Shown here: one piece after another, positions 27,294 to 29,581 of the stretch
How the letters are laid out: each line of letters begins with the position of its first letter
Position numbering within the stretch: position 1 is the first letter of the stretch
From: Limnothrix sp. BL-A-16
Lineage (GTDB): Bacteria > Cyanobacteriota > Cyanobacteriia > CACIAM-69d
Assembly (NCBI GenBank): GCA_041937175.2
Contig: CP166615.1
Span: 3,584,001-3,648,000, forward strand
DNA: 64,000 nucleotides
Direction of reading: 5' to 3'
Notes under the pieces: model-generated
Database searches by the model: none
What the model was told of the DNA's origin: nothing
Seen by the model: the letters and a program-made list of their open reading frames with translations, nothing else
Position numbers and translations under genes: made by a program

Positions 27294-27751
27294 TTATGGG
27301 CGATCGCTCCATTCCGCAAAATCTACAGTCATAGCCTGTTCAAAGTTTAAGACTGGGGCGGTTGGGAACTGGTCGATCGGCAGATCGGTTTCAGCTTCTG
27401 CCTGCGAGCCTTCGCATAGGCTTTATCGACGAACTCCGAGAGTCGAGCTTGCAGGCTGGGATTATCGGTTAGCAGGTCTTCAATCTCGATCCGTGCATTT
27501 TTGATCGAAATTGACCATGAGCGCGATCGCCTGTGAGCTTGATAGTGCCACTTCAGGAGATGCAGATAGAGGCGTGCAAGCTGATTAACGAGTGCGTCTC
27601 GTTTCGATGCCCCCAAGCTCTCGATCTCCTCAATCAGATTTTCTAGATCAATATCTGCCAAACGACCGGATTTCAGCAACTCAACTTGCTGCTGAATCCA
27701 GCCGTGGTAATCCGTTTCGTAGGTGTTGGCGGCAATGGTTTTGGCTGTCAT
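27294..27751 (-). pseudogene. DUF29 family protein, frameshifted near the C-terminus
   Basis: YETDYHGW...LIEEIESLG...HLLKWHYQ...SW; the expected 'EAETDLPIDQFP' tail lies in another frame from ~27398. Confidence 0.75.
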
Positions 27752-27826
27752 GGGCGATCGCTCCTAAACCCGCTTTCAGAGGATGTTTGAGCAGGAACTG
27801 GGGCTACTAGCAAGATACGAGTAGTC

Positions 27827-27853
27827 GTAGGGGCAAGGGGCTTAAGCCCCTTG
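27827..27853. repeat. REP-like palindrome preceded by GTAG
   Basis: GTAGGGG-CAAGGGGCTTAAGCCCCTTG. Confidence 0.8.
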
Positions 27854-27987
27854 TCTTCGTCGATCGAGGCAACCCGCAAGGTAACAACTTTGGCTTTAGG
27901 GCAGACCACGATCGCGCGGTTGGGGCCGTCACCATCAACGTTGTTTTGACATCCTCTCCAGTTTAAGCGGTGTCAGAGTTGCCAACC

Positions 27988-28173
27988 CTAATTGCCGCAA
28001 TTCGTACAGGTACAGTTCGCGCCGCAGGTACAGGAACCGGAACCACCACAACCACAGCCTGAAGCATAGGCAGCGGTCGGCGCGATCACGGTCAAAGCAG
28101 CAGCCACAGCACCCAAAATCTTGATCGTGCGGCGACCTTTGGACGATTGCGATGTCGAAGTCTGTTGAGTCAT
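27988..28173 (-). CDS. Secreted Cys-rich metallothionein-like peptide (61 aa)
   Basis: AGGAG RBS; signal peptide ending AYA; predicted mature SGCGCGGSGSCTCGANCTCTNCGN with 7 Cys. Confidence 0.75.
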   Translation of the reverse strand: MTQQTSTSQSSKGRRTIKILGAVAAALTVIAPTAAYASGCGCGGSGSCTCGANCTCTNCGN

Positions 28174-28220
28174 GGGTTTGTTCTCCTGCTTGCACAAGGG
28201 CAAGTTTGACTAATAATTCA

Positions 28221-28252
28221 ACTCTATTCTCTCTAGTAAGCTATAGAGTCAA
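28221..28252 (-). promoter_or_regulatory. MerR-family (ZntR/CadR/PbrR-like) metal-responsive promoter
   Basis: TTGACT-N20-TAGAGT with dyad CTCTATAG-ctta-CTAGAGAG overlapping the -35 and spacer. Confidence 0.7.
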
Positions 28253-28314: not shown

Positions 28315-28896
28315 GTGACTTCGGGAAATTTGACCCAACAACCCAATCACCCAACCGAGTCCGCCATTCCGCCTCACTGGGTGTTCACTCAGGTCGATCG
28401 CCCGGAACAGCCCGAGACCCAAACCCAGGATGCCGCCGCTGCCGATCATGGCCTGCGCCAGTTGGCCCTGGTGGCCGAGGATCGGGTGAAGGTGCGCCGA
28501 CAGGTCACCCTTGATGATGGGACGGTGGCTTGGTTGCAACTGGCCCGGGGCACAGTGCTGCGGCCGGGCGATCGACTGCGCACCGTCCAGGGAGACTGTT
28601 GCCGGGTGGTGGCGCAACCGGAACCGGTGCTGACGGTGCGATCGCCCGATCGACTGTCCCTGTTGCAAGCGGCCTATCATTTGGGCAACCGCCATGCGCC
28701 CCTGGAAATCACGATCGATTATTTGCGGCTCGCGCCGGATCCAACCCTGAAAGATTTGCTGGAACGACGCGGCCTCCAAGTGATTGAGGAAATCGCCCCC
28801 TTTGTGCCGGATCCGGGAGCCTATTCAACGGTCGATCGCGCCCACCATACCCACCACCATCACCACGACCACGCCAATTCCCATCACCATGAGTGA
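28315..28896 (+). CDS. ureE: Urease accessory nickel chaperone UreE
   Basis: LARGTVLRPGD, AAYHLGNRH, His-rich tail; start may be GTG 28381. Confidence 0.92.
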   Translation: MTSGNLTQQPNHPTESAIPPHWVFTQVDRPEQPETQTQDAAAADHGLRQLALVAEDRVKVRRQVTLDDGTVAWLQLARGTVLRPGDRLRTVQGDCCRVVAQPEPVLTVRSPDRLSLLQAAYHLGNRHAPLEITIDYLRLAPDPTLKDLLERRGLQVIEEIAPFVPDPGAYSTVDRAHHTHHHHHDHANSHHHE

Positions 28897-29581
28897 GCCA
28901 TTGTCCCGATCGCTTGCCCTGTTGCAATTGGCTAGCCCGGCCTTGCCCGTGGGAGCCTTTAGCTATTCCGAGGCGATCGAAACCTTGGTGGACAAGGGCC
29001 AGGTGAGATCGGCTGCCGATTTGACCGACTGGTTGCGACAGGAGTTACGGGTGGGCAGCATCCGTCTGGAAGCGGCGGCCCTGCTGAAGGCGCGACAGGC
29101 GATCGATCAGGGCAATCGGGACTCCATTCACCACTGGAATCAATGGATTTCGGCCTTGCGAGAAACGGAAGAATTGCGGTTACAAAGTTGGCAAATGGGG
29201 CGATCGTTGGTCACCTTGGCCAAGGATCTCAACCCAGCCGATACCACCTTAGTGACGCTGAATCTGCAACCAGTGAACTATGCGATCGCCTTTGCCAGTT
29301 TGGCTGCCCATTGGCAACTGAGCCACGCGGAAATGTTGACCGCCTATCTACAATCTTGGGCCAGCAATTTGGTGAGCGCTGGGGTTCGTTCCATCCCGAT
29401 CGGTCAAACCCAAGGTCAGCAAACATTACTCAATTTATGGTCTGACTTAACCGCCGCCATCACTGAAATTCAGCAACTCGCCACCGCTGATACGGATGAT
29501 GATTGGTTTGCTTGTGGTTGGGGCCTCTCGATCGCCAGCATGACCCACGAAACCCAATACAGCCGCCTCTTCAGAAGCTAG
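28889..29581 (+). CDS. ureF: Urease accessory protein UreF
   Basis: LQLASPALPVGAFSYSE ... HETQYSRLFRS. Confidence 0.95.
   Translation: MSEPLSRSLALLQLASPALPVGAFSYSEAIETLVDKGQVRSAADLTDWLRQELRVGSIRLEAAALLKARQAIDQGNRDSIHHWNQWISALRETEELRLQSWQMGRSLVTLAKDLNPADTTLVTLNLQPVNYAIAFASLAAHWQLSHAEMLTAYLQSWASNLVSAGVRSIPIGQTQGQQTLLNLWSDLTAAITEIQQLATADTDDDWFACGWGLSIASMTHETQYSRLFRS

Follow-up and report, generated by a model that had tools for sequence, protein, structure and literature searches.

The locus considered here raises the question of whether a bacterium encodes a small metallothionein (MT) destined to leave the cytoplasm and, if so, which metal it would hold. It lies in Limnothrix sp. BL-A-16 (contig CP166615.1, positions 3,584,001 to 3,648,000), in a stretch of 64,000 nucleotides (the window below), where an original prediction made from the letters alone had pointed to a secreted MT-like peptide with fungal cysteine spacing. 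Our answer, to which we give a probability of about 60%, is that its product is a Cu(I)-metallothionein, induced by copper and exported, by which copper would be sequestered outside the cytoplasm.

A short gene with a signal-like leader and a seven-cysteine core

The gene and its immediate signals are listed here with reference to the three genomes of the genus that were compared (G000, the genome of the window, G001 and G002).

27988..28173, minus strand: open reading frame (ORF) of 61 amino acids (aa), predicted exported MT precursor (translation; conservation in 3/3 genus genomes)
28063..28173, minus strand: predicted signal peptide, residues 1-37, with GRR, a hydrophobic region (h-region, residues 19-31) and A-Y-A (sequence, hydropathy; architecture retained in G002)
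27991..28062, minus strand: predicted mature core, 24 aa, 7 Cys, about 2.1 kDa (Cys pattern, conservation)
28183..28187, minus strand: ribosome-binding site AGGAG, 9 nt upstream of the ATG (conserved in 3/3 genus genomes)

The minus-strand translation is identical to the ORF of the original prediction (37 aa followed by 24 aa), AGGAG was located where a ribosome-binding site had been proposed, and the GRR, hydrophobic core and AYA of the proposed signal peptide are all present. By inspection and hydropathy, the N-terminus resembles that of a substrate of the general secretory (Sec) pathway and signal peptidase I, with a basic n-region, an h-region (mean Kyte-Doolittle value of 2.5 here and 2.9 in G002) and an A-x-A motif; in 4/4 sequences the hydrophobic residues 19-31 are followed by P and A-Y-A. 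The predicted core carries the pattern C-x-C-x5-C-x-C-x3-C-x-C-x2-C (spacing 1,5,1,3,1,2) and has the general composition of a metallothionein, with 29% Cys, three CxC motifs and neither His nor aromatic residues. The codon pattern of the seven Cys occurs once in the window, in 0/100 shuffles and once in the six frames of the genome.

Pfam and NCBIfam scans of the 61-aa protein gave no family over the cut-off. The closest PDB sequence is 1t2y, a 25-aa 'Metallothionein' with identical spacing and 13/23 identities (E = 0.27). We take its organism to be fungal (a family 8 Cu-thionein of the Neurospora crassa / Agaricus bisporus type). The likeness to the Neurospora Cu-MT that had been claimed is found both in 1t2y and in the literature: the Neurospora and Agaricus MTs have the same seven-Cys spacing, and the seven-Cys units of Cryptococcus MTs bind Cu5 clusters (PMC4755600).

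The MT gene is present in 3/3 genus genomes, each time divergent from ureE. At 74% protein identity, G002 retains all seven Cys, along with the RR, AYA and the hydrophobic core between them. Seven of the eight base differences from the G001 ORF fall on third codon positions, and those from G002 number 12, 4 and 19 at codon positions 1, 2 and 3. RNA contigs confined to the MT gene occur in 5/8 runs (X1, X2, X5, X6 and X7) from four studies; their 5' ends lie at 28160-28192 and none extends into the promoter, while run X9 has cover over the neighbours too; the lack of RNA cover over ureEF was given no weight. Because these contigs are unstranded and come from the runs found with this stretch, they are a weak hint of expression.

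The operator-promoter and its regulon

Upstream of the gene lies a control region that the original prediction had overlooked.

28221..28252, minus strand: MerR-type promoter with -35 TTGACT (28247-28252), a 20-nt spacer and -10 TAGAGT (28221-28226) (DNA alignment, geometry)
28228..28249, minus strand: 22-bp dyad operator of the cyanobacterial HMRTR (MerR-family) type (published matrix score)

Metal-sensing MerR promoters have TTGACT boxes and 19-20-nt spacers (PMC3431237), and the 22-bp matrix for cyanobacterial HMRTR sites is centred 8 bp past the -35 box (PMC5045206; threshold 3.5, training minimum 5.9). The MT site shows this arrangement, with its dyad centred 8 bp past the -35 box and its spacer within 19-20 nt, and ranks 1 of 9,111,252 genome positions with a score of 5.76 (5.67 in G001 and 5.68 in G002). 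A first, self-made dyad score failed to single out the operator, whereas the published matrix succeeded. A sigma-70 scan found no promoter for the MT gene, because only 16-18-nt spacers were allowed. In the DNA alignment of the genus genomes the promoter forms a conserved island, even though 92 additional nt separate it from the ribosome-binding site in G002. Each of the three genomes has one MerR-family gene; the one here (C1:786409-786993) is likely to encode the cognate regulator of the MT operator.

The same operator-promoter pattern, built from the HMRTR matrix and the MT site, was found in 83/201 class genomes, compared with one match for the reversed control. When the first genes at the 129 recovered sites were classed by hand-written motifs, 47 were of copper type (16 Atx1/CopZ-like, 18 HMA-led ATPase-like, 10 CopM and 3 multicopper oxidase), 29 were the regulator itself, 14 were Grx/MauE and 39 fell into an 'other' class that takes in the three MT sites. 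Among 24 picked ORFs, Pfam confirmed HMA, DUF305, Cu-oxidase_3, MauE, YtkA and RND domains; twelve of the ORFs, ten small ones rich in Cys or Met and two of greater length, were without a Pfam family. As judged from these first genes, this is a widespread cyanobacterial MerR operator tied to copper genes. Behind it we also found signal-less MT-like ORFs with 10-11 Cys, in four genomes of another cyanobacterial genus (L330, L331, L334 and L335, one of which had been in the query alignment) and at four metagenome loci (L312-L315); one such ORF adjoins the regulator gene, and P0010 is likewise MT-like, the operator not being seen there. They belong to no Pfam family and have C-x-C-G-x2-C-x-C in common with the exported core, so that the core may as plausibly have originated in bacteria as in fungi. 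The proposal of an exported, metal-binding peptide of MT type is strengthened by this regulatory context and by these relatives.

Two further groups of first genes were observed at these sites. Small leader-bearing ORFs rich in Cys or Met (L202, L255, L258, L259, L305, L237, L229, L304, L256, L265 and L267) are of C-x6-C-x4-C, GC-x-CC and Met-rich types, and those scanned have no Pfam family. Glutaredoxin-MauE or MauE-like genes, which come first at the 14 sites mentioned (among them L186, L191-L193, L197, L203 and L307-L310), suggest by their position a role in copper stress.

A second site bears on the identity of the metal.

G000:C1:1489548-1489642 (L169, L157, L150), plus strand: second MerR operator and candidate small RNA (sRNA) (matrix score, conservation)

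This operator (C1:1489548, plus strand; score 5.37, with a weaker -10 box) is, apart from the MT site, the one place in G000 where a high score coincides with TTGACT geometry, and no further intact operator was found in the genus. An element of about 59 nt follows it in 3/3 genus genomes, with 57/58 columns identical, and ends with a hairpin and a T-run (fold z -2.96); an Rfam search gave no match. Its best trans BLAST match in G000 is a complement of about 25 nt (E 0.011) in the petE 3' region (C1:724294, plus strand), 150-200 nt past the stop, which is retained in 3/3 genus genomes within otherwise diverged DNA and did not turn up in three relatives, at four loci of the petE family. The petJ ribosome-binding region (C1:2615945, minus strand) has a 12-nt complement, 8-19 nt ahead of the start, in 3/3 genus genomes; it was found in 0/2 relatives, and G000 has no other copy in trans. 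A duplex test on seven 5' regions, the MT and petE leaders included, gave results no better than random windows, and since duplex energy by itself places the petE 3' site 6th of 1262 seeded candidates, what speaks for these targets is that the complements are contiguous and conserved. A third complement, an 11-mer antisense inside a gene, was treated as chance.

The known copper switch for petE and petJ is PetRP, petR being present in 75% of genomes with both genes (bioRxiv 2020.07.31.226407). The PetR family was not found in 3/3 genus genomes and is present in 2/2 relatives tested. Because the predicted sRNA complements both petJ and petE where PetR was not found, it lends independent support to copper as the inducer, and an RNA-based copper switch between cytochrome c6 and plastocyanin can be predicted as possible. 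The operator context elsewhere, this candidate sRNA and the missing PetR together make copper, and not nickel, the likely metal.

The proposed copper sink and its rivals

The copper equipment of the genome comprises CopM, plastocyanin, an Atx1-like gene and a cytochrome c6 gene, together with a separate SmtA and TatC; Csp and the DUF692 enzyme were not found in it (0 matches for DUF692, with a working control), and no heavy-metal (HME) RND was over the cut-off. The plastocyanin, cytochrome c6 and SmtA genes point to a cyanobacterial host. Each genus genome has one P1B-1 ATPase. Compared with 4/4 genomes that have two such ATPases, it aligns along its length with the paralogue lacking the operator (50-55%), but with the operator-controlled paralogue in the C-terminal half only. 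We take the operator-less paralogue to be CtaA-like and the operator-controlled one to be PacS-like. The assignment also leans on PMC4284471, and by these alignments the genome is without a PacS-like exporter. A second P1B-like ATPase, lacking the CPC motif, was seen at G000:C1:4488165 (plus strand).

From the conserved ORF, its signal-like N-terminus, the seven-Cys core and the operator-promoter with its regulon, we infer induction, export, cleavage and metal binding as follows. The single MerR-family regulator would sense excess cytoplasmic copper and activate the promoter with the 20-nt spacer. The precursor would then be exported, probably by the Sec route, and cut after AYA. By analogy with the fungal Cu5-(7-Cys) units, the 24-aa peptide would fold around about five Cu(I) in its predicted destination, the periplasm or the thylakoid lumen, and serve as an inducible copper sink in a genome without a PacS-like exporter. 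The co-regulated sRNA would meanwhile redirect electron transport to plastocyanin in place of cytochrome c6.

Several points weigh against this proposal. Free thiols may oxidize outside the cytoplasm, and the similarity to 1t2y falls short of significance. The operator score is below the training minimum of the matrix, and the copM and atx1-like genes of this genome are not among the best 30 of the 9,111,252 operator scores. The MerR-family regulator falls under every NCBIfam cut-off (CueR, 91 of 147 bits; MerR, 90 of 151), and the protein itself therefore does not tell which metal it senses; mercury is the metal to which Slr0701, a member of the MerR family in Synechocystis, responds (PMC6741143). 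The exported form gave 0 credible matches beyond the genus in 400 phylum and 400 class genomes, and a 97% relative (P0002) was its sole match in protein libraries of 5.8 billion and 1.84 billion entries; all of these sets are samples and overlap each other. In run X19 a contig joins 27608 to 28199, removing about 590 nt (the MT gene and part of the DUF29 gene) and retaining the operator, which indicates a related strain without the MT gene; run X3 has no cover over the gene, and both observations speak against its being essential.

A bolder version, which we consider unlikely, is that in a genus that has lost the PacS pump and PetRP one MerR sensor induces an MT that leaves the cell's interior already loaded with Cu(I), as a disposable vehicle for export or lumen delivery, and also an sRNA by which the switch between cytochrome c6 and plastocyanin is operated. 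Twin-arginine translocation (Tat) of a folded peptide loaded in the cytoplasm, which would replace a PacS-like pump as an efflux vehicle or deliver copper to the lumen, we regard as rather unlikely. The RR is invariant in 4/4 sequences, albeit from close kin, the n-region is long and polar, TatC is present, and neither a PacS-like ATPase nor an HME-RND over the cut-off was found; Tat use would also explain how seven thiols escape oxidation, since metal loading before export would shield them. Yet the plastocyanin precursor of the same genome likewise has an RR and A-x-A, and presumably uses the Sec route. Csp1 provides a precedent for Tat export (PMC7558416), whereas G-R-R-T-I/M-K here misses the Tat consensus Z-R-R-X-phi-phi (PMC13673990). 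The alternative left by the original prediction, Sec or else Tat via the RR, therefore keeps its first half, for which the features are present, with its second weakened; Sec export of the precursor appears more likely than Tat.

It is improbable that the hydrophobic stretch remains uncleaved and anchors the Cys core at the membrane surface. The best 18-residue window of the precursor has a mean hydropathy of 1.8-2.3 and the single-helix protein PsbM is a weak Pfam match (E 0.27), but the hydrophobic core spans only about 13 residues before the invariant P and A-Y-A. Nor do we give much credit to a secreted peptide that is disulfide-bonded or enzymatically modified, as a redox buffer or as a bufferin-like ribosomally synthesized and post-translationally modified peptide (RiPP), without a thiolate cluster. 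The bufferin layout is a signal peptide with a small Cys core, and further small secreted Cys peptides lie behind the operator (L202, L255, L258 and L305); however, the genome has no DUF692/MNIO enzyme, the MT gene has DUF29, a glycosyltransferase and ureEF as neighbours, seven is an odd number of Cys and the cytoplasmic relatives share the core.

A broad sink for soft metals (Hg, Ag, Cd) under a mercury-type MerR, instead of a copper device, has a slim chance. The regulator has a Cys in an 'APC' segment past the start of the coiled coil and one C-terminal Cys, presumably not the CueR layout, and Slr0701 offers the precedent mentioned above. Against this, no merA-like first gene was recognized by eye among the 129 sites, and the complements of the candidate sRNA sit at both genes of the copper switch.

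The divergent genes that would suggest nickel are the following.

28315..29581, plus strand: ureE and ureF, divergent neighbours, probably outside the unit (adjacent in 3/3 genus genomes)

Both were recognized on the opposite strand in 3/3 genus genomes, as originally described, but a nickel store for urease maturation is very improbable, because by its geometry the promoter serves the MT gene alone, the four signal-less MT-like relatives are not beside ure genes, urease maturation is cytoplasmic and the core has no His; ureEF is probably just a neighbour. On the other side, the DUF29 gene (27347-27751, minus strand) shows four extra bases at 27397 in several runs and a longer frame in G001, so that the copy in the window has apparently suffered a frameshift close to its end. 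A palindromic multi-copy repeat (27825-27862; 74 matches with at most 4 mismatches on both strands of C1) lies downstream of the MT gene and may form the 3' end of the transcript.

Distribution and relation to known systems

Metagenome, viral and plasmid scans for the exported form were empty. Four weak matches in class genomes and two others were inspected and discarded, and one weak match was obtained in G003 (E 0.005). A scan for the Cys pattern returned at least 120 loci, mostly low-complexity frames. Signal-like leaders with MT-like Cys arrays were observed in two planctomycete metagenome-assembled genomes (MAGs) and in other records (L019, L081, L100 and L316-L319), so that MT-like peptides with export signals may extend beyond the genus. 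Short signal-less MT-like ORFs were also seen at L029 and L118, the former, in an archaeal MAG, directly ahead of a heavy-metal ATPase-like gene.

If the copper reading is right, a natively exported minimal Cu-thionein would be a new way of buffering copper outside the cytoplasm, the known exported copper stores (Csp1 and CopM) being folded proteins, and it would bear on whether there was more than one origin of the seven-Cys 'primeval fungal' unit. With only 24 residues the peptide is cheap to test, and the candidate sRNA offers a testable petE/petJ switch for genomes without PetRP. Published accounts of a bacterial MT with a signal peptide, of this MerR-family regulator or of a petE sRNA were not found in a search that left outside it subscription papers (most of them, for the MT) and bioRxiv supplements.

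Among bacterial systems, SmtA/BmtA (PF02069) and PmtA are Cys-rich metal sinks, as predicted here, yet the exported peptide has no PF02069 match and no His ligands, and the SmtA of this genome is separate. MymT of Mycobacterium tuberculosis is similarly a small, easily overlooked, copper-related MT (PMC7558416); it is repressor-controlled (PMC11672702), no export signal is described for it in PMC7558416, and it gave no sequence match to the exported peptide in the searches run. SmtA, MymT and PmtA are described without a signal peptide in the portions of the literature consulted (PMC7558416, PMC11672702, PMC4894872, PMC11237414), PmtA being nonetheless on the cell surface of Pseudomonas (PMC11237414), and MTs with an unclear role have been detected in marine Synechococcus exoproteomes (PMC4894872). 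Csp1 and CopM are exported copper binders, as predicted here, and CopM is often behind the same operator (10/129), but both are folded helical proteins, CopM binding one Cu (PMC4894872), and this genome has no Csp. The signal-less MT-like ORFs L330, L331, L334 and L335 share the operator and the common core, while having 10-11 Cys, no leader and an apparently cytoplasmic location.

The closest likeness is to the fungal family 8 Cu-thioneins, with identical seven-Cys spacing, small Gly/Ser/Asn/Thr linkers and 13/23 identities with 1t2y. These, however, are peptides of about 26 residues without a leader, whereas here a 4.5-Mb bacterial contig encodes a 61-aa precursor that has a leader resembling a signal peptide and whose gene follows a MerR operator, and the similarity is not significant. 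The 'new MT class' proposed originally has to be qualified, given that the spacing is that of known fungal proteins. We found no description of the exported form for bacteria, and the peptide, being neither SmtA nor Csp nor an MNIO RiPP, probably functions in the manner of the fungal family 8 Cu-thioneins without being classed among them, with export and MerR control as its likely new features.
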